Position numbers and translations under genes: made by a program. A DNA stretch of 64,000 nucleotides, from the NCBI GenBank assembly GCA_963791885.1, contig CAWBUL010000005.1:1942356-2006355 (forward strand), given 5' to 3'. Below the pieces are notes generated by a model that worked only from the letters and a program-made list of their open reading frames with translations, was not told where the DNA came from and did no database searches. The DNA is from an uncultured Pseudomonadota bacterium (GTDB lineage Bacteria > Pseudomonadota > Alphaproteobacteria > Acetobacterales > Acetobacteraceae). How positions within the stretch are numbered: the stretch's first letter is position 1; each line of letters opens with the position of its first letter. Of the stretch, positions 3,956-50,773 are shown piece by piece.

Positions 3956-6664
3956 TTAAGTGACCTGCCGTGTGACGCGCCGCGCTTCCAGCAGGACCGC
4001 TATCCGTTCGGCGAGGTGCTCCGCGCTTACCGGCTTTCGGAGCAGAGTGAAGCTGCCGCTGATCGCGCCAGTGACCGCGAGGGAGGTGCCTTCCTCGGCA
4101 TAGCCGGTCAGCAGCACGGAGGGCAGGTTGGGCTGATAGGCCTGTGCAGCGCGGATCAGGCTCAGGCCGTCCATTCCGGGCATCGACAGATCGGTGACCA
4201 GAACATCAATGCCTTCTCCTGCATTGAGCAGCGCCATGGCTTCCATGCCGCTTTGCGCAACCAGGGTGGCGTAGCCCATGTCCTCCAGCAGGGTGCTCAT
4301 GAGTTCGCGGATCGTCGCATCATCGTCCACCAGCAGTACACGGGCGCGCATCGGGCGTTCGGGTCCGGCCGGGCCCGTGGGGCGGATGAGGGTGGTTTCG
4401 ACCTGCGGCAGCCAGATGGCGACCCGAGTACCAAAGCCCGGGTTGCTTTCGATGTGGAAGGCACCACCCGATTGCTCGGCGAAGCCCTTGACCATCGGGA
4501 GTCCCAAACCTGTGCCTTCGCCCGCAGGCTTGGTCGTGAAAAACGGCTCGGTGACGCGCGCCAGCGTGGCCGCATCCACCCCGACGCCGGTATCGGTGAC
4601 CGTGAACCGCACATAGTGTCCGGGCCGCAAGCTCAAGGCATTCGGCCGCTCGGGCACAGTTTCGGTGACCGCGGACAGCACCAGTACGCCGCCGGACGGC
4701 ATCGCGTCGCGGGCATTGGTGGCGAGGTTGATGAGCGCGGTTTCAAGCTGGCCTTTGTCAGCGATGACAGCGGGTAGGCCGGGCGGGGCTTCGATCTCCA
4801 TGCGGATGGCGGGACCCAGGGCAGGTTCCAGCACCTCGGTCAGGCCATGCAGCAGGTCGGCCGGCGCGATGGGCTCGGCGCGAAGGTCTCCGTGGCGGGA
4901 GAAGGCGAGCAACCGTCGGGTGACGGACGCGCCACGTCCCGCGGCGTCCAGAATCAGTTGCGCCAGGCGCTGTAGCCCGCCATCGGTGGTGCGGTTCGCG
5001 ATCAGCGTCGCGCCGCCCTGAACGGATTGCAGTACATTGTTGAAATCATGGGCGATTCCACCTGCGAGCTGACCCAATGCCTGCATTCGTTCGGCATGCG
5101 CCGCGCGGATCTGAGCCTCCTCGCGGGCGGCGACTTCGGCACGGACTCGTGCTTCCAGTTCATGGTTGATGGTGCGCAGCCGTGCTTCGGCTTCACGCAG
5201 CACGTCGTCCGCGCGAACGCGGTCGCTGATGTCCTGGATGATCCGGATGGCGTAGAGCGGCGTGCCCTGGTCCCGCAGCAGGGAGACATGCACGCTGACC
5301 CAGACACGCGAGCCATCCTTGCGGATCAGGCGATTTTCCAGCGTGTAGGAATCGATGTCGCCACGCCAGAGCGCTTCATGGCGTGACCGGTCGCGGTCGC
5401 GATCCTCGGGTGCGGTCAGAAGATGGAAGGGCTGGCCGGTCAGACCCCCCTCGGGGTAGCCGAGGATCTCGTGCAGGCGCTGATTGGCGTTGCGATAGAT
5501 GCCGGCGCGGTCGGTTTCGCCGATGCCAACCGGCGCCGCCGCGTAGGTCGCGCGCAGCCGGTGCTCACTGACCTGGAGCTCGGCCAGAACAGCGTCGCGT
5601 TCCTTCAGCCGATGCGCGGCGTGTTCCGCTGCCCGACGCAGGGCGTCACCCACATCCTCGGCCTCGCGCAGACCCGGGGTCGGTGGTGGCGGAATTTCAC
5701 CGCGGCCGAAGGCCATAGCCGCACGTGCGAGGGCCCGCATCGGAACGGCGATCCGGCGGGCCAGCAGCCATGCGGCCGTCGCGGCCAGAAGCAACGTGGC
5801 CAGTCCGGTCGCGAGTGTGATGAGCAAAGCGGCGCGGAGCGGATCGTCGATTTCGCTGCGGGGCACGCCGACGACGACCGACCAGCCGGTCAGGGGCGAA
5901 CGGAGCAGGGTGGAGTAGAGGGCAAGGCCGTCACGCGAGACGTTGGGGAACCAGACTGCATCACCGGCCTGGGCGCGGATATCGGCCGATGGCGGGCGGC
6001 CGAGGTATTCGTCGAGATGGCGGGTCCGACCGATGATGAGCCCTTGCCGGTCCATGATTCCCGCGAGCCACGACGTCGGCAGCGCCTGGTCCTGCAGTAC
6101 GGCGGAGAGCTGAGTCGGAGGCAGGCCGGCGGCGAGCACGTAGGCGACCTGTCCATTGCGGAAGACCGGGACCTCCACGGAAAGGATAGGCTCATTGCCA
6201 AGCGCGGCGGGAACCAGGTCCGAAATCGCCGGGCGGCCGGTGGCGAAAACCTTCAGATGTGTCTCGAGATGAAGGCTACGCGGCAGCGGTGCGCCCCATG
6301 GCACCCGGCTGCTAACGAGCTGCTGGCCGCTGCGGTCGATCAGGACGATGCCGGTCGCGCCAAGGACGGGGGCGGCCGCGGTGATCAACTCGCGGAAGTC
6401 TTTCAGATCACCGGACTGGAGACTCGGCGCCTGAGCCAGCAGCTTCAGGGACGTCTCGGCGTTGCTGACGTAGCGATCCGTGGCGACGACGAGCGACTCG
6501 GCCCTCGCGTGCGCGGTATCCCGGAGGCGATCGGCGGTTTGCTGTACAGTCAGCACCCCGAGCCAGGTGGCAAGCGCGGCGGTGGGCAGGGCGCTGACCA
6601 AGGCCAGGGCGATGAGCCATGTCCGGGTGCGGGGGCTGCGCCGGGCTGTTGCGGGAGCGGCCAT
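3956..6664 (-). CDS. Hybrid sensor histidine kinase/response regulator (TM-dCache-TM-HAMP-PAS-HisKA-HATPase-REC)
   Basis: 902 aa. It has an N-terminal TM helix, a roughly 250-aa Cache-like periplasmic region, a second TM helix and a PAS domain. Further motifs are LGQLAGGIAHDFNNVLQ (H-box), NLATNARDAMP (N-box), DTGVGVD, GTGLGL, and a C-terminal receiver VLLVDDD...DLSMPGMDG. Confidence 0.85.
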   Translation of the reverse strand: MAAPATARRSPRTRTWLIALALVSALPTAALATWLGVLTVQQTADRLRDTAHARAESLVVATDRYVSNAETSLKLLAQAPSLQSGDLKDFRELITAAAPVLGATGIVLIDRSGQQLVSSRVPWGAPLPRSLHLETHLKVFATGRPAISDLVPAALGNEPILSVEVPVFRNGQVAYVLAAGLPPTQLSAVLQDQALPTSWLAGIMDRQGLIIGRTRHLDEYLGRPPSADIRAQAGDAVWFPNVSRDGLALYSTLLRSPLTGWSVVVGVPRSEIDDPLRAALLITLATGLATLLLAATAAWLLARRIAVPMRALARAAMAFGRGEIPPPPTPGLREAEDVGDALRRAAEHAAHRLKERDAVLAELQVSEHRLRATYAAAPVGIGETDRAGIYRNANQRLHEILGYPEGGLTGQPFHLLTAPEDRDRDRSRHEALWRGDIDSYTLENRLIRKDGSRVWVSVHVSLLRDQGTPLYAIRIIQDISDRVRADDVLREAEARLRTINHELEARVRAEVAAREEAQIRAAHAERMQALGQLAGGIAHDFNNVLQSVQGGATLIANRTTDGGLQRLAQLILDAAGRGASVTRRLLAFSRHGDLRAEPIAPADLLHGLTEVLEPALGPAIRMEIEAPPGLPAVIADKGQLETALINLATNARDAMPSGGVLVLSAVTETVPERPNALSLRPGHYVRFTVTDTGVGVDAATLARVTEPFFTTKPAGEGTGLGLPMVKGFAEQSGGAFHIESNPGFGTRVAIWLPQVETTLIRPTGPAGPERPMRARVLLVDDDATIRELMSTLLEDMGYATLVAQSGMEAMALLNAGEGIDVLVTDLSMPGMDGLSLIRAAQAYQPNLPSVLLTGYAEEGTSLAVTGAISGSFTLLRKPVSAEHLAERIAVLLEARRVTRQVT

Positions 6665-35951: not shown

Positions 35952-36450
35952 ATGATCACGCGCCGCGCAACCGGTCAGTTGCTTGCGTCCACGGCTGTTT
36001 TGGCCGTTTCCGGCGCGTTACGTCCGGGCCTCGCCGATCAGGAAATCAAGGTTGGAATTGACCTGTCGCTAACCGGGGCGGATTCGGAAAGCGCGCAGCG
36101 CATTCTCTACGGTGCCCAATTGGCGTTCAACGATGCGAACGCCAAGCATGCCATTCCCGGCTACACCATCAAGGCAGTGGTCTATGATGACGGAACGGCA
36201 ACCGCGGGGCAGTACGATCCTGCGCAGGCCGCCACCAATGCGCGACGGATGGTGAGCGAGGGGATGGTCGCGGCCGTTGGTCCGATGATGAGCGGCGCCG
36301 GGAAGGCAATGGGGAACGGTTTCATTCGATAAATATGGCGACCTTACGGACCGGACGATCAGCATTTTCCAGATCCGGCAGGACAACAAGTATCCGTTGA
36401 ACGATATGATCCACCAGTACCACTACATCGACACCGCACCGGCGGTGTAG
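35952..36450 (+). pseudogene. Leu/Ile/Val-type ABC substrate-binding protein with a large internal deletion
   Basis: The N-terminal 120 aa (signal, IKVGIDLSLTGADS..., AVGPMMSGAGKAM) end at a stop at 36330-36332. A different frame then reads SFDKYGDLTDRTISIFQIRQDNKYPLNDMIHQYHYIDTAPAV*, the extreme C-terminus of the same family. About 230 codons are missing. Confidence 0.7.
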
Positions 36451-39875: not shown

Positions 39876-42260
39876 GTGATGGCGCTGCGGACGCGACGTA
39901 TTCCCGTGACCAACGTCTCGACCGCGCCCGCTATCCTCCAGCATTGTGCGATCGATCCGCTGCGCGGCGTCGATGGCACGCTGGCCCCCGGCGTGCTGTC
40001 GGTGGGATCGATGCCGGGCAATCCCATTGGCCCGGCGGAGAGCGCCGAGCTCATGCTGACGGGCACGATTCCGGTCCACCCCGGCAAATACGCAACCACC
40101 GTCCGTCTGCTCGCTGCCTCTGGGGACAGTCTCGCCATTCCTGTTTCGCTGGAGGTACCGGCGGCCGCCGCCTGGGGCATTTTGTGCATGCTTCTCGGGC
40201 TGTTTCTGCTGGGAACCGTCAACCTGCTCCAGGGTGAAGGCGCGATCCGGACGACGCTGCACGATGCGCTGCAAGCCCGGCAGGACATTCACACCGTCCT
40301 GGAGACAAATCCTGCTCCGCAGAGCCTGGCGTCCGACGTCGAACTGATGAATCATGATTTCGATGTGGCGATCGCTATCCTGAGTCAGCGTCGCCAACCG
40401 TCGATCGTCGACCACCGGGAAGCCGAGGCGCAACCGCACCTGGACGAGGCGACGAAGATCGCCGCGAAGCTGCGTGCCGACCTGACCGGGCTGCCGCGAG
40501 GTCAGGCAGAGATTCAGGACGTGCAACAGGACTGGTCGGCGCTGCAATCGACGCTGCAGCAGATCGCCGCGTTGCCGCAGACCCTGCCGGCACAGAACGA
40601 CCAGAGCTTCGCCGCGCGGCTCAACGCGTTTCTGATCAATTTCCGCAATCGCACCTTGCGCGATCCGGCCATCCTTGTCGTCGCGGAGATGTCCACCGAG
40701 CTGGGCCGTATGAAGCTGGAGGAGGCGGCCGGCGAGGGTGACGCCGCGCGCGATCTTGCGCTTAACACGCGCGTGTGGCTGGAGCGCTCTTCGCTGTTTC
40801 TTCAACGCGAACTCACACTCTATCGCACCGCGCTCATCCAGGCCGGATGGATGCTGAACACCGATCGCGTCCTTCGCGAGCGCGCCGCCAAGGACGATCT
40901 GCTACCGGAAGACCGCGCCGCGATCCTGTCCAATCTCGACCGGGCGGAAGCGAAGTTGGCCGGCGACGCCACGTACGAAGACTTCCGCGATGCCAACCGC
41001 CTGATCGATGCAGCCTGGACGGCTCAGGTGCGCGGCTCCGCCAACATGGCCAAAATCAAGGACGATCAGGCGATCGCCGCTGCCGACAAGCAGACGGACT
41101 ACACAGACGTCACCGATCTGATGGGGAAGCTTCAGGCCGAACCTGCGCCACATACGATGGCCATGAAACAGTCCGGACTCACGCAAATTCTTGATTTCTG
41201 GCGTGCGCACGTGGCGGGCGTGACCGACGTCACGATGCGCGAGGCGATGCAGCACCAGTTGGATTCGATGCGGTCGCTCGTGAGCGCGGGCAAGCTGATG
41301 GACGCCTCTTCCGTCTATCGCACATTCATCAACGACTGGACGAAGTGGAACGGCAAACTCGTCGATCAGGGACTGGATCAGATCGATCATCCACGCTGCC
41401 TGGAATACTTCGCCGACCTCCAACGCAACGCGGCAAGCATCGAGGCCACACTGCGCGAGTTGCCCGCGAGCCCGCAGCTGACAGCGTGGGACCGCAGCCT
41501 CGATCAGATCCGGCTCGACCTGCTGCGTCAGGGACCGGACGCAGAGGCGGTCTCGGCCAATTGCATGCCGCCGCTGATCGACATCGGCAAGCGGACGGTG
41601 ACCCTGTCAGGTGAATTGTTCACCGCCGGCCTGATCGACGTAGCGCTCCCGGCGGCGACGCGGCTGCGTCTGGCGCAGGAGTTTGGCGTTGCCTCAGCGA
41701 TCGATCTCACCAGCGCCAATATAAGCCGGCCGCGAAACCTGACGTTGCGTTCGCTGACGCCGGCGGATGAGCGCGTGGTGGGGCGCGATCTGAGTTTCAC
41801 ATTGACCGGCGCCGATCCGGTGTGGGGGAGTTCGACCACGATCCGGGTGGATTTCGGCGACGGCACGGCGCCGTTCATTGCGAACGCCGAAGCGGTTCGT
41901 CAGAGCGGTCCGATCGTGCACCAATACGCTGCGCCAGTGACCGCACGGCTCACCGTGACGGCGACGGAGGATCCGAGGCCGGGCGAGGCGACAGGAACAC
42001 TACTGGGTCAGGGTAATACGACGGTGCTGATCGTGCCGTCGCCAGTCACGCGGGCGCGCATCATCGCCGATGAGTTTCTGAACCTGCGCTTCGCGCTGGC
42101 GCTGCTGATCGCGATGACGGTTTATTACTGGCGTTACCACAACCGGACCACGGTCTTCGGCGCCCGGGGCTATGATTACGTGGAAGCGTTCGCCCTGGGA
42201 TTTGCGGTCGACGCCGCCGTTTCGCGGTTGCCGCAGGCCATTGCAGGGTTCGTCAGCTGA
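39876..42260 (+). CDS. Large hypothetical membrane protein with a PKD-like domain
   Basis: 794 aa. A TM helix lies at about aa 98-118 (AAAWGILCMLLGLFLLGTVNLL), followed by a roughly 500-aa helical region. A PKD-like block reads TIRVDFGDGTAPF...VHQYAAPVTARLTVTA, and there are two C-terminal TM helices. No signal peptide. An in-frame stop at 39732-39734 limits upstream extension. Confidence 0.6.
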   Translation: MMALRTRRIPVTNVSTAPAILQHCAIDPLRGVDGTLAPGVLSVGSMPGNPIGPAESAELMLTGTIPVHPGKYATTVRLLAASGDSLAIPVSLEVPAAAAWGILCMLLGLFLLGTVNLLQGEGAIRTTLHDALQARQDIHTVLETNPAPQSLASDVELMNHDFDVAIAILSQRRQPSIVDHREAEAQPHLDEATKIAAKLRADLTGLPRGQAEIQDVQQDWSALQSTLQQIAALPQTLPAQNDQSFAARLNAFLINFRNRTLRDPAILVVAEMSTELGRMKLEEAAGEGDAARDLALNTRVWLERSSLFLQRELTLYRTALIQAGWMLNTDRVLRERAAKDDLLPEDRAAILSNLDRAEAKLAGDATYEDFRDANRLIDAAWTAQVRGSANMAKIKDDQAIAAADKQTDYTDVTDLMGKLQAEPAPHTMAMKQSGLTQILDFWRAHVAGVTDVTMREAMQHQLDSMRSLVSAGKLMDASSVYRTFINDWTKWNGKLVDQGLDQIDHPRCLEYFADLQRNAASIEATLRELPASPQLTAWDRSLDQIRLDLLRQGPDAEAVSANCMPPLIDIGKRTVTLSGELFTAGLIDVALPAATRLRLAQEFGVASAIDLTSANISRPRNLTLRSLTPADERVVGRDLSFTLTGADPVWGSSTTIRVDFGDGTAPFIANAEAVRQSGPIVHQYAAPVTARLTVTATEDPRPGEATGTLLGQGNTTVLIVPSPVTRARIIADEFLNLRFALALLIAMTVYYWRYHNRTTVFGARGYDYVEAFALGFAVDAAVSRLPQAIAGFVS

Positions 42261-42284: not shown

Positions 42285-44231
42285 ATGTTCGCACCATTGA
42301 GCTGGCTTGCTGATTCGGACGCCCTGACGCCCGACGGATTTTGCCTGGCGTGGGAGCCAGGCTTGATCTGGCTGCAGGCAGGATCGGATCTGGTTATCGC
42401 GGCGTCCTACTATTCGATTCCCCTGGCGCTTGTGGTGTTCGCTCGCCGGCGTACCGATCTTGCCTTCCGCTGGATTCTGTTGCTGTTCGCAGCCTTCATC
42501 CTGGCGTGCGGCACCACCCACCTGTTCAGCGTTCTGACCTTGTGGGTGCCCGCGTACTGGGCCGAAGGAGTTGTGAAGGCCGTCACGGCGGTGATTTCAA
42601 TCATCACTGCTCTATGTCTCTGGCCGCTGATCCCGCGCCTGATCGCACTGCCGTCGCCCGCGGCCCTGGAGCGGGAGATCGAAGCACGCGACCAGGCCAG
42701 CCGTCAGCTTGCGGAAAGCGAGGCCCGCTATCGATCGCTGTTCATCCGCGCCCCGGCTGCCATGCATTCGGTCGATCAGCAGGGGCGGATCATCGCTGCC
42801 AGCGACATGTGGCTCGAGCTGCTTGGTTACGCGCGGAACGATGTCGAGGGGCGCCCGCTCTCCGAATTCCAGGAGCCGGGATCGCCGACCGACGACTGGA
42901 CCGAGACGCGCAATCAGGAGCGGCGCTTCGTGTGCAAGTCGGGCGCGGTGATCGACGCGCTGTTGTCGTCCACGCAAGAGCAGGACGCTTTGGCGATGGG
43001 ATGGCGGGCCGTCGGCGTGCTGATCGATGTGACTGCCCGCAAGCGGGCGGAGTCAGCGCTGCTGGACAGCGAGGAGCGGCTGCGCCAGGCCGAGAAGTTG
43101 ACGGCGCTTGGCCAGCTCGCCGGCGGCATCGCGCATGATTTCAACAACGTACTCCAAGCGATACAGGGCGCCGTCACCCTGCTTTCTCGCAATCGCGCCG
43201 ATCCCTCGGCGGTCGCGCGCTACGCGGCCCTGATCGATGAGGCCACAAGCCGCGCATCCTCAGTCACGCGCAGGCTGCTGGCGTTCGCGCGGCGCGACAC
43301 GTTGCGCGCGGCGCCCATTGGCGTGCAAGGCCTGCTGGGAGGCATGCGTGAATTGCTGACGCACACGCTGGGCACGGGCATCACGGTGGCCATCGATGTG
43401 CAATCCGCACTGCCGGACATCCTTGCCGATCGCGGGCAGCTTGAAACGGTGCTGCTGAACCTTGCCACCAATGCACGCGATGCCATGCCGTCAGGCGGTC
43501 GGCTGACGCTGTCTGCGGCGGTGCATGAGGTCCTGACCGAGGATCAGCCGCTCGGACTTGCCCGCGGTGAGTACGTGCGGCTTTCGGTCACCGATACCGG
43601 CGTGGGCATGGATGCCACGACGCTGACCCACGCCATGGAGCCGTTCTTTACCACCAAGCCGCAGGGCAAGGGTACGGGGCTGGGGTTGGCGACGGCACGC
43701 GGTTTCGCGGGACAATCAGGCGGTGCGTTGGGTATCGAGAGCGCCCCAGGTCTGGGAACCACGGTCAGCCTGTGGCTCCCCGTCACCGACGCGCATGCGC
43801 CGAATGTATCGCGCGACGCGCGCGATGCCCCCGGTCACCATACGGTCCACGTCTTGCTCGTGGATGACGATGCCATGGTCCGAGAGGTACTCGCGTCGGA
43901 ACTTGCGGACCGAGGTTTCGAAGTCATGCAGGCTGAAAACGCTCAGCATGCGCTGGATCTTCTCGTTGCCGATAGAACGATCGATCTGCTGATTTCGGAC
44001 CAGGCCACGCCCGGGACGGATGGGCTGACCCTGATCCGCATGGTGCGCGAACGCCAACCGGGGCTGCCGGCAATCCTGCTGACGGGCTATGCCAACGAAG
44101 CCACGGCGCTGGTGGCCAGCGGGTTCGTTGGATCGTTCACCCTGTTGCACAAGCCGATCACCGGGACCGAACTGGCGGATCGGGCGGCAGATTTGGTGGA
44201 CGCGGCGCGCGCAACGGATGTGGCACAGTAG
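42285..44231 (+). CDS. Hybrid histidine kinase with an ETR1-like (ethylene-binding-domain-like) three-helix N-terminus, PAS, HisKA, HATPase and REC
   Basis: 648 aa. The N-terminal helices SDLVIAASYYSIPLALVVF, FRWILLLFAAFILACGTTHL and KAVTAVISIITALCLWPLIP resemble ETR1. They are followed by a PAS domain, LGQLAGGIAHDFNNVLQ, NLATNARDAMP, DTGVGMD, GTGLGL and a receiver domain VLLVDDD...DQATPGTDG. Confidence 0.85.
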   Translation: MFAPLSWLADSDALTPDGFCLAWEPGLIWLQAGSDLVIAASYYSIPLALVVFARRRTDLAFRWILLLFAAFILACGTTHLFSVLTLWVPAYWAEGVVKAVTAVISIITALCLWPLIPRLIALPSPAALEREIEARDQASRQLAESEARYRSLFIRAPAAMHSVDQQGRIIAASDMWLELLGYARNDVEGRPLSEFQEPGSPTDDWTETRNQERRFVCKSGAVIDALLSSTQEQDALAMGWRAVGVLIDVTARKRAESALLDSEERLRQAEKLTALGQLAGGIAHDFNNVLQAIQGAVTLLSRNRADPSAVARYAALIDEATSRASSVTRRLLAFARRDTLRAAPIGVQGLLGGMRELLTHTLGTGITVAIDVQSALPDILADRGQLETVLLNLATNARDAMPSGGRLTLSAAVHEVLTEDQPLGLARGEYVRLSVTDTGVGMDATTLTHAMEPFFTTKPQGKGTGLGLATARGFAGQSGGALGIESAPGLGTTVSLWLPVTDAHAPNVSRDARDAPGHHTVHVLLVDDDAMVREVLASELADRGFEVMQAENAQHALDLLVADRTIDLLISDQATPGTDGLTLIRMVRERQPGLPAILLTGYANEATALVASGFVGSFTLLHKPITGTELADRAADLVDAARATDVAQ

Positions 44232-44250: not shown

Positions 44251-44793
44251 CTATCCGCTCGACACCAGGCCATTGATGGTCTTGGCGATCTGCTGCCACT
44301 CTGATGAGGCGATGTACTGGTCCGTCAGCGACGCCATCTGCGCCACATCCGTGCAGTCATCCAGTGAGTAGGTCTGAGTGAACACGGGATTGGCGCGAAT
44401 ATAGGTCGATCCCCGCAGCATCATCTGCGCGGTCAGATCGTTGATCTGGCTGCTCCCGGCGAACATCGCCTCGATCAGCGGAAAGGCGGGCGAGGTTCCA
44501 TCCTGGTATGGCCACATCCATCCAAGAATGCCGCCAGGGAAGATAGCGTCGGATGGCGGATAGGAGTTGCTGACGTCGCCTGTCCCGAGGGAGACGGGGG
44601 CGACACTGCCGGGTGCGGGCCCGTTTGCGCCCGAAAGCGAACTCGCCGAATAGCAGGCCGCGGCGACAGTGCAGGGATTGTCGGCACAGACGCCGCCATC
44701 CACGAACGAACCGGGCGTGATGGTGTGGGGCGGGAAGAACAGCGGCGCGGCCGCGCTGCACATCGCGGTGTCAATCAGGCTCGTGGCGCTTAG
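44251..44793 (-). pseudogene. Patatin-like phospholipase, C-terminal part (separated from its N-terminal part by a nested IS insertion)
   Basis: SATSLIDTAMCSAAAPLFFPPH...FVDGGVCADNP contains the catalytic Asp (DGG) motif. Sequence upstream of 44793 in this ORF belongs to the IS5 end. Confidence 0.8.
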
Positions 44794-44948
44794 GGAAACT
44801 CTGATCAACCCCGCCATCTGCGCCGCCCGGTCGTGGTGGTGGCGAAGACGGAGAAATCTGGATGCGACCTGAGGCCGGAATTCGGCGTTCGCGGGCCGGT
44901 TCGGCCGGTCTGCCGGATCGTCGCAGCGCTGCGGACGCAGCTCTCCTC

Positions 44949-45039
44949 TCACGCAGCCAGTAGCGACCTTCGAGCGAGGTAAAGATTGGCGAGGCCGCAG
45001 GTGACGAACAGCCGGTGGGCATTCTTGTCCAACCCGCGA
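44949..45039 (-). pseudogene. IS5-family transposase, C-terminal 30 codons
   Basis: RGLDKNAHRLFVTCGLANLYLARRSLLAA* continues ...KVRY from the other side of the IS630 copy. Confidence 0.8.
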
Positions 45040-45041
45040 TA

Positions 45042-46179
45042 GTGCTCTGACTCATACGGACGATGCAGGCAATCTTTCGAGCTTGGCAAGGATTGAGGCG
45101 GTGACTGCGGTCCAGACGAATGGGCGTGGTTCTGCATTTCGCTCAGCGAGGTAAGTCTTAATGGCAGCCTGCAGGCTGACGAGGGAGTGGAAGCTGCCGC
45201 GCCGGATGCGTTGTCGGGTAAGAGCGGAGAAGAAGGTCTCCACCGCGTTCAGCCATGACCCGGAGGTTGGCGTGAAGTGGAAGGTCCATCGGTCATGGCG
45301 TGCCAGCCAGGCCTGTACCTTTCGGTGCCGGTGGGTGGCGTAGTTGTCGACGACCGCATGGACCAACTTGCCGGACGGCACCTCGCGTTCGACGGCATTG
45401 AGGAAGCGGATGAACTCCTCGTGCCGGTGTCGCTGCATGCAGCGACCGATCACCGTACCCTTCAGCACGTTCAATGCGGCGAACAACGTCGTCGTTCCAT
45501 GGCGTTTGTAGTCGTGGGTCATGGTGCCGCAGCGGCCGGGTTTCAGCGGCAGTCCAGGCTGGGTACGGTCGAGCGCCTGGATTTGGCTCTTTTCGTCGAT
45601 CGACAGCACCACCGCGTGGGCGGGCGGATCGAGATAAAGGCCGATGATATCCGCCATTTTCTCAGCGAACTGCGGATCACGCGAGCGCTTGAAGCTGCGC
45701 ACGCGGTGCGGCTGGAGTTGGTGCGCCGCCCAGATGCGCTGCACCGAGCGCAGCGACATGGCGGTGGCGTTTGCCATGGCTCGCCCGGTCCAATACGTGG
45801 TCCCAGGGGGCGGCTCGCCACACGTGAGCGCCACGACGTGCGCCACTTTATCGGCCGGGATCGGTCGTTTGCCGGGCTTGCGCGTCTTGTCACGCAGCAA
45901 CCCGTCGGGACCTTCCTCGGCAAAACGCTGCTGCCAGCGCCAGACCATGGGGCGGCTGACGCTGATCTCTTTCGCCACATGTTGCACCGGCCGACCACTG
46001 GCCGAGGCCAGAACGACTCGGGCTCGCTCGATGTATTTGCCCGCTCGGTTGCGATCCGATGCTATTGCCTTAAGCCGCTTCCTGTCTGCCGCGCTCAACA
46101 ACACGCATACTGTCTGTGCCATGCTCACAAAATCGCATGGCAACCGCATGTTGTGAATCGATAGAATGCGTCAGAGCAA
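45042..46179 (-). mobile_element. IS630-family insertion sequence, copy 1 (1138 bp)
   Basis: Flanked by TA (45040-45041 and 46180-46181). The ends are GTGCTCTGACTCAT... and ...GAATGCGTCAGAGCAA. It contains a single 365-aa transposase ORF. Confidence 0.9.
45052..46149 (-). CDS. IS630-family transposase
   Basis: There is an HTH N-terminus (SVSRPMVWRWQQRF). The DDE region reads LSIDEKSQIQAL...VVDNYATHRH...FHFTPTSGSWLNAVETFF. The likely true start is MAQTV at 46122. Confidence 0.9.
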   Translation of the reverse strand: MRLPCDFVSMAQTVCVLLSAADRKRLKAIASDRNRAGKYIERARVVLASASGRPVQHVAKEISVSRPMVWRWQQRFAEEGPDGLLRDKTRKPGKRPIPADKVAHVVALTCGEPPPGTTYWTGRAMANATAMSLRSVQRIWAAHQLQPHRVRSFKRSRDPQFAEKMADIIGLYLDPPAHAVVLSIDEKSQIQALDRTQPGLPLKPGRCGTMTHDYKRHGTTTLFAALNVLKGTVIGRCMQRHRHEEFIRFLNAVEREVPSGKLVHAVVDNYATHRHRKVQAWLARHDRWTFHFTPTSGSWLNAVETFFSALTRQRIRRGSFHSLVSLQAAIKTYLAERNAEPRPFVWTAVTASILAKLERLPASSV

Positions 46180-46181
46180 TA

Positions 46182-47039
46182 GCGCACCTTCACAAATCCA
46201 AACACGCGCTTGATGACCCCGATACTATGCTCGACCTTCGCCCGTACCTTCGACTTGGTCCGATTGCGAGCTTTCTCTGCCTCATCGACAACACCGCGAT
46301 GACGATATCGCCGGTTGGTGAAGTCCTGTGCAGATGGAGCATGCTCGCGGATGACATGACGCTGGCCACGATAGGCCTGGTCGCCCCAGACACGCCGTTC
46401 CTCGCCATGTAGCAGGTCACCAAGCACGCTGGCATCATGCACATTCGCCGCAGTGGCCACCGCGGAATGGATCAGCCTGGTCCTGCTATCTACCCCGACA
46501 TGCGCCTTCATCCCGAAATACCACTGCTGGCCCTTGCGGGTCTGGTGCATCTCGGGGTCGCGCTGCTTTGTGGCATTCTTGGTCGAACTCGGAGCGCTGA
46601 TGATGGTCGCGTCCACGATCGTGCCGGTGCCCACCTTCAGACCCAGACTCTCAAGATGCTCGTTGACGGTGGCAAATATCTCAGTTCCAAGCTCGTGCTG
46701 CTCCAACAGGTGGCGGAACTTGCAAACCGTGGTCTCGTCCGGCACCGGCTCACGGCCGAGATCGATGCCGGCAAACTGCCGCATCGCAGCCAAGTCATAC
46801 AGCGCCTCCTCCACTCCGGGATCCGAGAGATTGAACCACAGCTGCAGGAAGTAGATGCGCAACATGCGTTCCAGTCCCACCGGTGGTCGGCCCCTGCCAG
46901 GCTTCGGATAGACCGGCTCGATCAGCGCACAGAGTTGCTGCCACGGCACTACCCGCTCCATCTCGGCAAGAAAGGCTCCCCGCCGTGTGGTCTTGCCGTA
47001 GCGTTCGAAGCTTACGCTCGCCAGGGTCGCTTGACGCAT
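46182..47039 (-). pseudogene. IS5-family transposase, N-terminal 286 codons (truncated by IS630 copy 1)
   Basis: MRQATLASVSFERYGKTTRRGAFLAEMERVVPWQQL...DATIISAPSSTKN...WYFGMKAHVGVD...GDQAYRG...VEHSIGVIKRVFGFVKVRY, after which the reading frame runs into the IS630 end. Confidence 0.85.
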
Positions 47040-47128
47040 CTCGTTCGGTCGATCCGAATGTAATCAATGCCACTCAACTACAGGCTGCTCCGTGACCGTG
47101 TCGAGATGGGATTCTTCAGAAGTCTCCT

Positions 47129-47692
47129 TAGATCCGGCGTCGTGGTCAGTCCCGGCAGGTTATGGAACACACAGGCCTGCCACGCATTGTTTTGGCCGGG
47201 GCTGATACGAAAGCTTGGTACGACGACGTATTTCTGCCGCTGCGTGGCAAGCTGCGCGAGGGTCATGGCGGGGAAGTTCGCCGTCAGCAGTGTTTGCAGT
47301 CCTATGCTTTGATATTTCGGGAAGGCCATTTGCTCCGCGGCTTCCATCACCAGCTGCAGGATCTTCGACCAGTCGATTTCCTCTCCGGCAGCCGCAGTTT
47401 GCGGCGGAATGGCAGCGGCGATGTGCGCACGCAGAGCGCGGGACTGAGCCTGGTTCAGATAGGGCGTGAAGATCTCGTTGCAGTTCGACATGGACTCATA
47501 AAGGGAGACGATGGTGCCGATCGGCACGCCGGCGGCGAGGCCGAGCGCGATAATGCTGCCGGTCGATGTGCCCGCGAACAGCGAAACGCTCTGCAGGAAT
47601 GCCGGATCCAGGCTCTGCAGCAGCTTGGCGGTGATCACCCCGCGCACGCCGCCGCCATCGTAGGACAGGATAATGAATGGCGGATTGGCCAT
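47129..47692 (-). pseudogene. Patatin-like phospholipase, N-terminal part
   Basis: ILSYDGGGVRGV is the oxyanion GGGxRG motif, and FAGTSTGSIIAL is the GxSxG nucleophile elbow. The native sequence ends at ...TTTPDL (47129). Confidence 0.85.
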
Positions 47693-50527: not shown

Positions 50528-50574
50528 CGGGGTTCATGTTGCGCGCCCCGCCGCCTGCCAACCCGGCGCGCTGT

Positions 50575-50655
50575 GCCCGCCTGGCGGAACGGTAGACGCA
50601 GCGGACTTAAAATCCGCGGCCCAGTGGCGTGGGGGTTCGACTCCCCCGGCGGGCA
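50575..50655 (+). tRNA. tRNA-Leu (anticodon UAA)
   Basis: Folded by hand. Acceptor stem GCCCGCC/GGCGGGC with discriminator A. D arm GCG-GAACGGTAGA-CGC. Anticodon stem-loop GCGGA-CTTAAAA-TCCGC. Long variable arm GGCCCAGTGGCGT. T arm GGGGG-TTCGACT-CCCCC. Confidence 0.85.
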
Positions 50656-50773
50656 TAAGCGATTGTTATTTTTCTGAAATCGCTCTGTCAGACAGGACCA
50701 TTTTGTTCCGCCTCTTAGGGTCATCGCCGTTCCTATGCGGGCATTATGCGGACGCTGCGGCTGAAAACCCAGC

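Follow-up and report, generated by a model that had tools for sequence, protein, structure and literature searches.

The kinase gene and its genomic neighbourhood

The window, by which we mean the whole 64-kb stretch of DNA analysed, comes from an uncultured Acetobacteraceae-like alphaproteobacterium, a placement based on PurA. Within it, the ORF list and a domain scan placed a kinase gene at 42285..44231 on the + strand, which is the strand of all features of this gene given below. The gene opens with an ATG start, closes with a TAG stop at 44229-44231 and encodes 648 aa, exactly as a sequence-only reading of this DNA had described it. Residue 1 of the product aligned to residue 1 of AzoEtr1 from Azospirillum brasilense Sp7 (OH82_RS30505; PLoS Genet 2025, PMC11819568). 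The Pfam scan revealed the domain order EBD-PAS-HisKA-HATPase-REC, in which an ethylene-binding domain (EBD) is followed by a PAS domain, a histidine-kinase core and a fused receiver (REC). The identical 648-aa protein was found on 3 contigs in public assemblies. The gene is under purifying selection, as seen in a dN/dS of 0.12 when compared with an orthologue of 97% identity and in a pN/pS of ~0.07 for the EBD. An AF2 model of the full protein had a mean pLDDT of 86.8, and in this model three confident TM helices ran into PAS and DHp via long helices.

A co-oriented ORF of 794 aa (39876..42260, + strand) ends 24 nt before the kinase start and may be co-transcribed with the kinase; its product gave only a weak, sub-threshold PKD match. 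No promoter-like or terminator-like sites were detected between the two on the + strand, in a scan that was uninformative, as expected at 64% GC. We compared the neighbourhoods of orthologues at 97%, 58%, 55% and 47% identity and ran tblastn on 80 EBD loci. The 794-aa gene adjoined the kinase in same-species or sister-lineage contigs only, and tblastn against the fetched loci showed that its product was absent from the 80 other EBD loci. Downstream of the kinase lies a convergent patatin gene, which is split here, with IS activity beside the kinase. The upstream gene and the patatin gene were each considered as a functional partner and neither was supported, since these neighbours are common to same-species or sister-lineage contigs only.

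With the patatin gene downstream, no response-regulator gene adjoins the kinase, and the window contains just one further REC, which is part of another hybrid kinase (3956-6664). Near the kinase we found no HPt, response-regulator, copper-handling or ethylene-metabolism genes, and the neighbourhood was not conserved. Rfam and tRNA scans returned nothing relevant to the kinase gene. A 1-Cys peroxiredoxin gene is located near the kinase. Elsewhere in the window, the PAS-HK-REC module is also joined to a dCache sensor, and the module therefore appears in more than one sensory setting.

The membrane domain is of the ETR1 type

The ethylene-binding domain (Pfam ETR1_N, PF25487) occupies 42363..42650 (aa 27-122). 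It matched the Pfam profile at 132.8 bits against a gathering cut-off of 27, over profile positions 2-97 of 97 (E=5.4e-39). Hydropathy and the AF2 model agreed on three helices, TM1 at 42357-42449 (aa 25-55), TM2 at 42468-42539 (aa 62-85) and TM3 at 42555-42647 (aa 91-121), with pLDDT of ~88-95 across them. There is no Lys or Arg in aa 1-30, as against RRR in the loop at 52-60, so that the positive-inside rule is obeyed. The predicted topology of the sensor domain is thus three helices with the N-terminus out and the C-terminus in.

The sequence-only reading had proposed that these helices track Arabidopsis ETR1. The three helix strings on which it relied were located at aa 34-52, 61-80 and 98-117 of the translated ORF, and the ETR1 strings it had quoted proved correct against UniProt P49333, of which our AtETR1 reference sequence is an exact match. 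We then took residue equivalences from a three-way MAFFT alignment of the ORF, AtETR1 and AzoEtr1. Invariant columns (ORF=AtETR1) were D35=D25, Y42=Y32, I45=I35, P46=P36, I72=I62, C75=C65, H79=H69 and K98=K91, and these include the Asp25, Tyr32, Ile35, Pro36, Cys65 and His69 equivalents that the earlier reading had named. Seven AtETR1 residues have been reported as required for ethylene binding, D25, Y32, I35, P36, I62, C65 and H69 (Wang et al. 2006, cited by PMC11819568). Equivalents of all seven, and of the Lys91 partner, are present in the ORF.

In TM1, Asp35 (42387..42389) corresponds to AtETR1 Asp25 and AzoEtr1 D35, and the other binding residues aligned there are Y42 (42408-42410), I45 (42417-42419) and P46 (42420-42422). 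The alignment places the predicted Cu/ethylene site in TM2 at 42498..42521, with Ile72 at 42498-42500, Cys75 at 42507-42509 and His79 at 42519-42521; the last two codons were those already assigned by the sequence-only reading. In TM3, Lys98 (42576..42578) corresponds to AtETR1 Lys91 and AzoEtr1 K98. The Asp25-Lys91 polar pair is reported to couple binding to output, and K98 is the proposed bridge partner of Asp35 (PMC10266040, PMC11819568). Both D35 and K98 are present in the ORF, which is a statement about sequence and not about geometry.

We assessed conservation of these positions across 389 homologues. His was invariant at position 79 (389/389) and Cys nearly so at position 75 (388/389), while position 35 was Asp in 365/389 and Asn in 21/389, and position 98 was Lys in 361/389. 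Conservation of the eight functional residues ranged from 93 to 100%.

These alignments bear on whether the likeness to ETR1 could be a chance resemblance between generic hydrophobic helices, the outcome that the earlier reading had said would undo its proposal. The Pfam match extends end to end (E=5.4e-39), BLASTP against AtETR1 gave E=6e-19 across the N-terminal 180 aa, and D, Y, P, C, H and K align exactly, with Cys and His falling on C65 and H69. Chance resemblance is refuted, and we leave it next to no probability. A PDB sequence search with the EBD returned only a spurious GPCR match (E=0.27), and it offered no solved ETR1-type TM domain for comparison. Judged by its sequence, the membrane domain truly belongs to the ETR1-type EBD family and retains all of the known binding residues.

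The periplasmic PHGxC motif and the H17D allele

Per-column conservation revealed a periplasmic motif in the N-terminal tail, P16-(H)17-G18-x-C20 (42333..42344). The ORF departs from the P-H-G-x-C-x-x-W consensus that precedes TM1 and reads P-D-G-F-C: position 17 was His in 363/389 homologues (93%) and is Asp here (GAC, 42333-42335). Relatives at 95-97% identity have CAC/His at this position, and the His17-to-Asp change is confined to the strain group of the ORF. Different samples have yielded the D17 allele, on at least 3 contigs in all, and the neighbourhood is intact on one of these. The motif is accessory in bacterial EBD proteins rather than family-defining, it is absent from plant ETR1, and we found no discussion of it in the cited ethylene-receptor literature.

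Replacement of His17 may impair copper loading or dimerisation, and the EBD of the D17 allele might be compromised, or serve mainly as a membrane anchor or dimeriser with PAS as the effective sensor. Such a reading would fit a substitution at a site conserved in 363 of 389 homologues that is limited to one strain group while close relatives keep His, and the IS activity next door that accompanies the split patatin gene. The pairing of a PAS-HK-REC module with dCache elsewhere in the window likewise fits it, as a sign of modularity. However, purifying selection on the EBD is strong (pN/pS ~0.07), the canonical binding residues are all intact, and plant ETR1 binds ethylene without a counterpart of His17. 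The recurrence of D17 across contigs and samples indicates that the allele is not a decaying singleton, and inspection of the PAS sequence found no recognisable cofactor motif. We therefore regard a compromised or purely structural EBD as distinctly unlikely. An effect of H17D, if real, would have a counterpart in the natural Asp25Asn variants of the EBD family, which are reported to have low affinity.

Cys20 (42342-44), conserved in 385/389 homologues, is the single N-terminal Cys and aligned to ETR1 Cys4, in a tail where the alignment is loose; Cys4 and Cys6 of AtETR1 are covalent homodimerisation sites. The rice receptors OsERS1/2 were reported to conduct Ca2+ and other cations, an activity for which the assembly sites Cys4/Cys6 at the N-terminus are needed but Cys65 is not (PMC13261662). 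With C20 kept in nearly all bacterial homologues, the TM domain of the ORF might form a cation-permeable pore, in addition to or instead of sensing. That report is single, recent and limited to plant receptors, and a pore would not account for the Cu/ethylene residues being conserved almost universally; moreover, the attached kinase and receiver point to signalling. A pore is therefore highly improbable.

The cytoplasmic transmitter and receiver

In the AF2 model, a signalling helix (42657..42746, aa 125-154) leads from TM3 to PAS and is set off from TM3 by a brief interruption at the conserved P123-S124. The PAS domain (42759..43034, aa 159-250) was identified by Pfam PAS_9 (E=3.5e-8), together with PAS and PAS_8, and has a beta-sheet core in the AF2 model. 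Pfam and a motif scan placed the histidine-kinase core at 43107..43787, comprising HisKA/DHp (aa 275-339), in which His284 (43134-43136) is the predicted phospho-acceptor, and HATPase_c (aa 382-501), which has an N box (N392), G1 (D437), G2 (G463) and EPFFTTK. The linker ahead of the receiver, aa 504-517, is disordered in the model (pLDDT <50). The fused receiver (43851..44183, aa 523-633; Pfam Response_reg E=8e-19) contains the motif residues D528/D529, D572, T600 and K623, and Asp572 (43998-44000) is its predicted phospho-acceptor. The kinase catalytic motifs and D528, D572 and K623 were invariant in 79 orthologues. The Pfam scan found no HPt domain within the 648-aa protein and no GAF domain in the ORF, where PAS takes its place. 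These results bear out the earlier proposal that the output side is PAS-HisKA-HATPase-REC rather than of the plant GAF type.

The closest solved kinase core was CckA 5IDJ (E=6e-41), and a Foldseek search of the PDB with the AF2 model of the whole protein matched the cytoplasmic PAS-HK part alone (YF1/SB2F1, CckA, LvrB), the sensor end being uninformative. The top NCBIfam models were PRK13557 (E=5e-96; 322 against a cut-off of 631) and CckA models. We considered CckA as the identity of the protein and rejected it, because the scores of 285 and 244 bits lie far under the equivalog cut-off of 1000.

Proposed function and place in the family

Taken together, sequence features and analogy with characterised homologues make it probable (about 70%) that the product of the ORF is a hybrid sensor histidine kinase of the inner membrane, belongs to the ETR1/SynEtr1/AzoEtr1 family and senses ethylene by means of Cu(I), modulating a phosphorelay from H284 to D572. 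By the model of those homologues, a homodimer would hold Cu(I) on Cys75 and His79, oriented by Asp35, inside the membrane. Ethylene would diffuse in and bind the copper, and the Asp35-Lys98 bridge would reposition TM3. The change would travel along the TM3-helix-PAS-DHp axis and alter autophosphorylation of H284, and phosphate would pass to D572 and from there to an HPt protein and a response regulator whose genes lie elsewhere. If the receptor behaves like SynEtr1, AzoEtr1 and the plant proteins, ethylene would most likely switch its output off. In A. brasilense, biofilm formation falls with ethylene treatment and likewise with receptor disruption, and slr1212 is negatively regulated by ethylene. 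Several points weigh against this reading, namely Asp17 in the periplasmic motif, the lack of HPt, response-regulator, copper-handling and ethylene-metabolism genes near the kinase, and a fused receiver in place of the separate response regulators of AzoEtr1 and SynEtr1. Any source of ethylene for this host is speculative, because the host lineage is not known as plant-associated.

The EBD is carried by 8,572 clusters at 50% identity, and a scan of species-representative genomes gave at least 597 EBD loci, the window's own genome not being among those returned. The most frequent layout in the family is EBD-PAS-HK, either followed by a REC or lacking one. Among the matches listed are the non-plant-associated taxa Methylobacter, Nitrospirota, Anaerolineales and Polyangiales, and bacteria that can be cultivated, such as Zavarzinia sp. 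CC-PAN008, Caulobacter sp. Root655, Rhodovastum atsumiense and Belnapia, also carry orthologues. Publications on EBD proteins of Proteobacteria go back to about 2016-2019 (PMC7700396; PMC11819568, refs 27, 32 and 41). AzoEtr1, an alphaproteobacterial EBD-PAS-HK protein, binds ethylene and controls biofilm formation and root colonisation (PMC11819568). The sequence-only reading had presented the gene as a good candidate for an ethylene or other Cu-dependent gas sensor and had implied that such bacterial receptors are rare. Its functional proposal is the reading that the sequence best supports; the implied rarity fell away before the size of the family, its Pfam curation and the ethylene binding of AzoEtr1. 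A survey of orthologues and their neighbours, which that reading had suggested, found a large family with no conserved signalling neighbours. With thousands of EBD proteins, a Pfam-curated domain and AzoEtr1 already shown to bind ethylene, the ORF is ordinary for the EBD family and conceptually adds nothing beyond AzoEtr1 and SynEtr1.

The breadth of the family also raises the question of whether a true EBD Cu(I) site could serve another signal, such as a different alkene or an alkyne, CO or NO, the availability of periplasmic copper, or an effect of oxygen or redox state on Cu(I) and the thiolate. Ethylene binding has been demonstrated for a handful of members (plants, SynEtr1, AzoEtr1), the thousands of others include many from the non-plant-associated taxa named above, and the host here is itself an uncultured Acetobacteraceae-like organism; the nearby 1-Cys peroxiredoxin is a weak contextual hint in the same direction. 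Against this, the binding residues defined by mutagenesis of AtETR1 are 93-100% conserved family-wide, pointing to a shared ligand chemistry. Both tested bacterial members bind ethylene (PMC11819568), and we found no alternative ligand for any EBD in the cited literature. A signal other than ethylene thus appears rather unlikely.

If this kinase does bind ethylene, grounded perception would be extended from root-associated Azospirillum to an uncultured, probably free-living member of the Acetobacteraceae, and would include a fused-receiver (phosphorelay) version of the receptor. This would support ethylene as a widespread microbial signal and not a plant hormone only. More tentatively, the EBD-PAS-HK-REC subfamily, which abounds among Acetobacteraceae and further Alphaproteobacteria that live freely in soil, could signal into a ChpT-like phosphorelay that reports soil or microbial ethylene, or another Cu(I)-binding gas, apart from plants, and H17D could alter copper loading, dimerisation or ligand affinity; we hold this wider proposal to be rather unlikely. 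The potential for discovery lies in the conserved PHGxC motif, the natural H17D variant and the HPt/response-regulator partners of this abundant hybrid subfamily.

Comparison with known systems

AzoEtr1 is likewise alphaproteobacterial, has the same N-terminal length and register, so that D35, C75, H79 and K98 are numbered identically, and shares the order EBD-helix-PAS-HisKA-HATPase. The EBDs are ~50% identical and the whole proteins align at E=3e-67, whereas overall identity is 32% and is low outside the EBD. AzoEtr1[1-130] showed saturable 14C-ethylene binding, and its D35A and C75A mutants were non-functional (PMC11819568). AzoEtr1 has 525 aa, no fused receiver and a separate response-regulator gene directly downstream, whereas in the ORF the REC (D572) is fused and no regulator gene lies alongside. 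AzoEtr1 also has His17 (PHGVC) where the ORF has Asp17, and its host colonises roots, in contrast to the uncultured Acetobacteraceae-like host of the ORF.

AtETR1 (P49333, subfamily I) shares the three-helix EBD, the seven binding residues and Lys91, and is also a hybrid kinase with a C-terminal receiver. It differs in having GAF between EBD and kinase where the ORF has PAS, a TM2-TM3 loop that is 3 residues longer, and a short luminal N-terminus with Cys4/Cys6 where the bacterial tail is ~25 aa with PHGxC. Plant receptor output runs via CTR1/EIN2 and is largely independent of His-kinase activity (PMC11819568), whereas for a bacterial protein a phosphorelay is the expected route.

SynEtr1 (slr1212, Synechocystis PCC 6803), compared here by description, is also an ethylene-binding bacterial EBD histidine kinase; it differs in its phytochrome-like/GAF photosensory domain and in signalling to a separate response regulator, slr1213. 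Among the PAS-HK-REC modules of Alphaproteobacteria (CckA/PRK13557), the core of the ORF is closest to the DHp-CA of Caulobacter CckA, but its sensor end is an EBD, whereas that of CckA is a TM/PAS array.

An ETR1-type N-terminal domain on a hybrid histidine kinase

The ORF at 42285-44231 on the + strand starts with ATG and encodes a 648-aa hybrid histidine kinase with a three-helix ethylene-binding domain (EBD). A Pfam scan matched aa 27-122 to ETR1_N (PF25487, 'Ethylene receptor 1-like, N-terminal domain'), covering profile positions 2-97 of 97 with E=5.4e-39 and 132.8 bits (cut-off, 27 bits), followed by PAS_9 (aa 159-250), HisKA (aa 275-339), HATPase_c (aa 382-501) and Response_reg (aa 523-633). 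GAF had no match anywhere in the protein, and the PAS-HisKA-HATPase-REC output without GAF, proposed in the sequence-only reading, was borne out. In BLASTP, aa 20-177 paired with residues 4-183 of Arabidopsis ETR1 (AtETR1) at E=6e-19; the full AtETR1 query was identical to UniProt P49333 by exact look-up. The helix strings quoted in that reading were located at aa 34-52, 61-80 and 98-117, the AtETR1 strings it gave agreed with P49333, and the codons given for Cys75 (42507-42509) and His79 (42519-42521) were correct.

A three-way MAFFT alignment with AtETR1 and AzoEtr1, the receptor of Azospirillum brasilense Sp7, revealed invariant columns at D35, Y42, I45, P46, I72, C75 and H79, corresponding to D25, Y32, I35, P36, I62, C65 and H69, which AtETR1 requires for ethylene binding (PMC11819568). 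K98 was likewise invariant and corresponds to K91; Asp25-Lys91 is a proposed output-coupling bridge in AtETR1 (PMC11819568; PMC10266040). Among 389 aligned homologues, the His69 and Tyr32 equivalents were present in all 389, Cys65 in 388 and Lys91 in 361, while the Asp25 position held Asp in 365 and Asn in 21, in agreement with the published high conservation of this Asp and its natural Asn variants (PMC10266040). Since C75 and H79 occupy the C65 and H69 columns and the domain falls in ETR1_N, not in an unrelated sensor family, two of the outcomes that could have overturned the earlier proposal fail. The profile match and the aligned binding residues place the protein in the family and support a candidate ETR1-type sensor of ethylene or another Cu-dependent gas; that the resemblance to ETR1 arose by chance is a negligible prospect.

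Topology, predicted structure and selection

Hydropathy analysis located three TM segments in the N-terminal domain. Because the first 30 residues contain no Lys or Arg and the TM1-TM2 loop carries RRR, the predicted topology is N-out/C-in. An AlphaFold2 model built from 79 orthologues (mean pLDDT 86.8) predicted TM helices at 25-55, 62-85 and 91-121 (pLDDT about 88-95), a 30-residue helix (125-154) that connects TM3 with the PAS fold, extended DHp helices at 250-302 and 307-335, the CA domain, and a disordered linker (504-517) between the CA domain and the receiver. The cytoplasmic part was similar to the solved PAS-HK structures YF1/SB2F1 and CckA; no solved structure matched the sensor domain in a PDB sequence search or a Foldseek comparison of the model with the PDB. 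A channel function has been reported for rice ethylene receptors (PMC13261662), and we regard such a function for this kinase as highly improbable. The kinase motifs (H box H284, N box N392, G1 D437, G2 G463) and receiver residues (D528/D529, D572, T600, K623) were intact and invariant in 79 full-length orthologues. Judged from sequence, ligand, copper, output and phosphorelay residues are all intact.

Bacterial EBDs commonly carry a periplasmic P-H-G-x-C-x-x-W motif ahead of TM1; of 389 homologues, 363 keep its His, 385 its Cys and 366 its Trp. At the His position, residue 17, this kinase has Asp (GAC, 42333-42335); relatives at 95-97% identity encode His there (CAC). The Asp17 allele was seen on several contigs, indicating a real polymorphism. 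Plant ETR1 has no such motif in the three-way alignment, so ethylene binding as such does not depend on the motif, and we found no discussion of its role in the ethylene-receptor literature cited here. Compared at the DNA level with a 97%-identical orthologue, the gene had a dN/dS of 0.12 and, within the EBD, a pN/pS of about 0.07, indicating that the kinase is maintained by purifying selection. That the EBD is compromised or serves only as an anchor, leaving the PAS domain as the sensor, is quite doubtful.

Genomic context

PurA encoded in the window was 86-88% identical to proteins of Acetobacteraceae MAGs and Acidibrevibacterium, which identifies the host as an uncultured Acetobacteraceae-like alphaproteobacterium. 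The kinase gene is flanked by a co-oriented 794-aa ORF without assigned function (39876-42260, +), which ends 24 nt upstream with no promoter-like or terminator-like site on the + strand between them, and by a convergent, split patatin-like phospholipase gene (44251-47692, minus). Hydrophobic stretches of the 794-aa ORF lie near aa 97-111 and 738, and its sole profile match is a sub-threshold PKD (aa 634-699). The C-terminal (44251-44952, minus; Patatin profile 148-190) and N-terminal (47078-47692, minus; profile 1-60) patatin fragments are separated by IS630-like DDE_3 (45052-46149) and IS5-like DDE_Tnp_1/DUF772 (46125-47039) transposase genes, whose ORFs overlap by 25 nt. In two near-identical contigs (L002 and L088), the patatin gene at this site is intact and encodes 367 aa. 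Beside a peroxiredoxin gene, a 126-aa ORF (35952-36332, +) corresponds to no more than the N-terminal portion of a periplasmic binding protein and looks like a truncated gene remnant; its L002 equivalent carries Peripla_BP_6. Rfam and ARAGORN matched only a tRNA-Leu (anticodon TAA; 50574-50656, +) in the 64-kb window.

The order 794-aa ORF, kinase, patatin was found only in same-species and sister-lineage contigs, not around orthologues at 58%, 55% and 47% identity or at 80 other EBD loci. Between purA and the 794-aa ORF, the sister lineage has two additional genes, which encode a PEP-CTERM-domain protein and a TPR/sulfotransferase protein. The surroundings of the kinase contained no gene for a response regulator, an HPt, copper handling or ethylene metabolism. 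The window's only other receiver belongs to a 902-aa dCache_1-PAS-HisKA-HATPase_c-REC kinase (3956-6664, minus), whose transmitter and receiver are of the same PRK13557/CckA-like type as those of the EBD kinase (HK domain phmmer E=4e-79). This likeness suggests that, in this genome, different sensor domains have been swapped as modules on a single output unit. With unconserved neighbours, no nearby partner genes and a module common to the dCache kinase, the EBD kinase is an orphan hybrid kinase built on a modular transmitter.

Proposed signalling

By analogy with AtETR1, AzoEtr1 and SynEtr1 (slr1212 of Synechocystis PCC 6803), a dimer would carry Cu(I) on Cys75/His79, oriented by Asp35, and the copper would bind ethylene. 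An Asp35-Lys98 link would then shift TM3, and the signal would travel along the signalling helix, via PAS, into the DHp domain, where it would alter autophosphorylation of H284 and, with it, transfer to D572; an HPt and a response regulator, presumed to be encoded elsewhere, would complete the relay. Ethylene probably turns output off, because ethylene and receptor loss share one phenotype in A. brasilense and slr1212 is negatively regulated by ethylene (PMC7700396). It is unlikely that the EBD instead senses a different Cu(I)-binding signal. We put the probability that the kinase is a Cu(I)-dependent ethylene sensor modulating an H284-to-D572 phosphorelay at about 0.7.

Family distribution and comparison with AzoEtr1

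An exhaustive HMMER search with aa 1-135 over 1.84 billion 50%-identity representatives returned 8,572 EBD clusters at E≤1e-3, of which 1,258 reached E≤1e-30. When one genome of each GTDB species was scanned with a pattern, at least 597 loci were confirmed, those listed including Alpha-, Beta-, Gamma- and Deltaproteobacteria, Cyanobacteria, Verrucomicrobiota, Chloroflexota, Nitrospirota and others. ETR1_N was present in all 95 representatives checked, together with HATPase_c (59), PAS_4 (45, the commonest PAS model), Response_reg (22), GGDEF (9) and EAL (5). Of the best 120 full-length matches, 118 had ETR1_N, and most were about 650 aa with PAS, HATPase_c and Response_reg as well; named sources were Acetobacteraceae, Rhodopila, Belnapia, Rhodovastum and Dongiaceae. 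Many proteobacteria and cyanobacteria are known to encode EBD proteins with diverse outputs (reviewed in PMC7700396), and 1,221 ETR1-related sequences have been analysed (PMC10266040). The kinase is typical of an abundant family that is already known and curated.

Little here is new, as the closest characterised relative, AzoEtr1, has already been demonstrated within the same bacterial class. Carlew et al. 2025 (PMC11819568) reported that AzoEtr1 of the alphaproteobacterium A. brasilense, a 525-aa EBD-PAS-HK protein with a separate downstream response-regulator gene, binds 14C-ethylene saturably, that ethylene treatment or AzoEtr1 disruption reduces biofilm formation and root colonisation, and that D35A and C75A are non-functional. 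The sequence that we retrieved from the Sp7 chromid had the expected 525 aa and an N-terminus (MFGGVEAFF) matching the published primer. Its residue 1 aligns with residue 1 of the EBD kinase, the two are about 50% identical across the EBD, and D35, C75, H79 and K98 have the same numbering in both.
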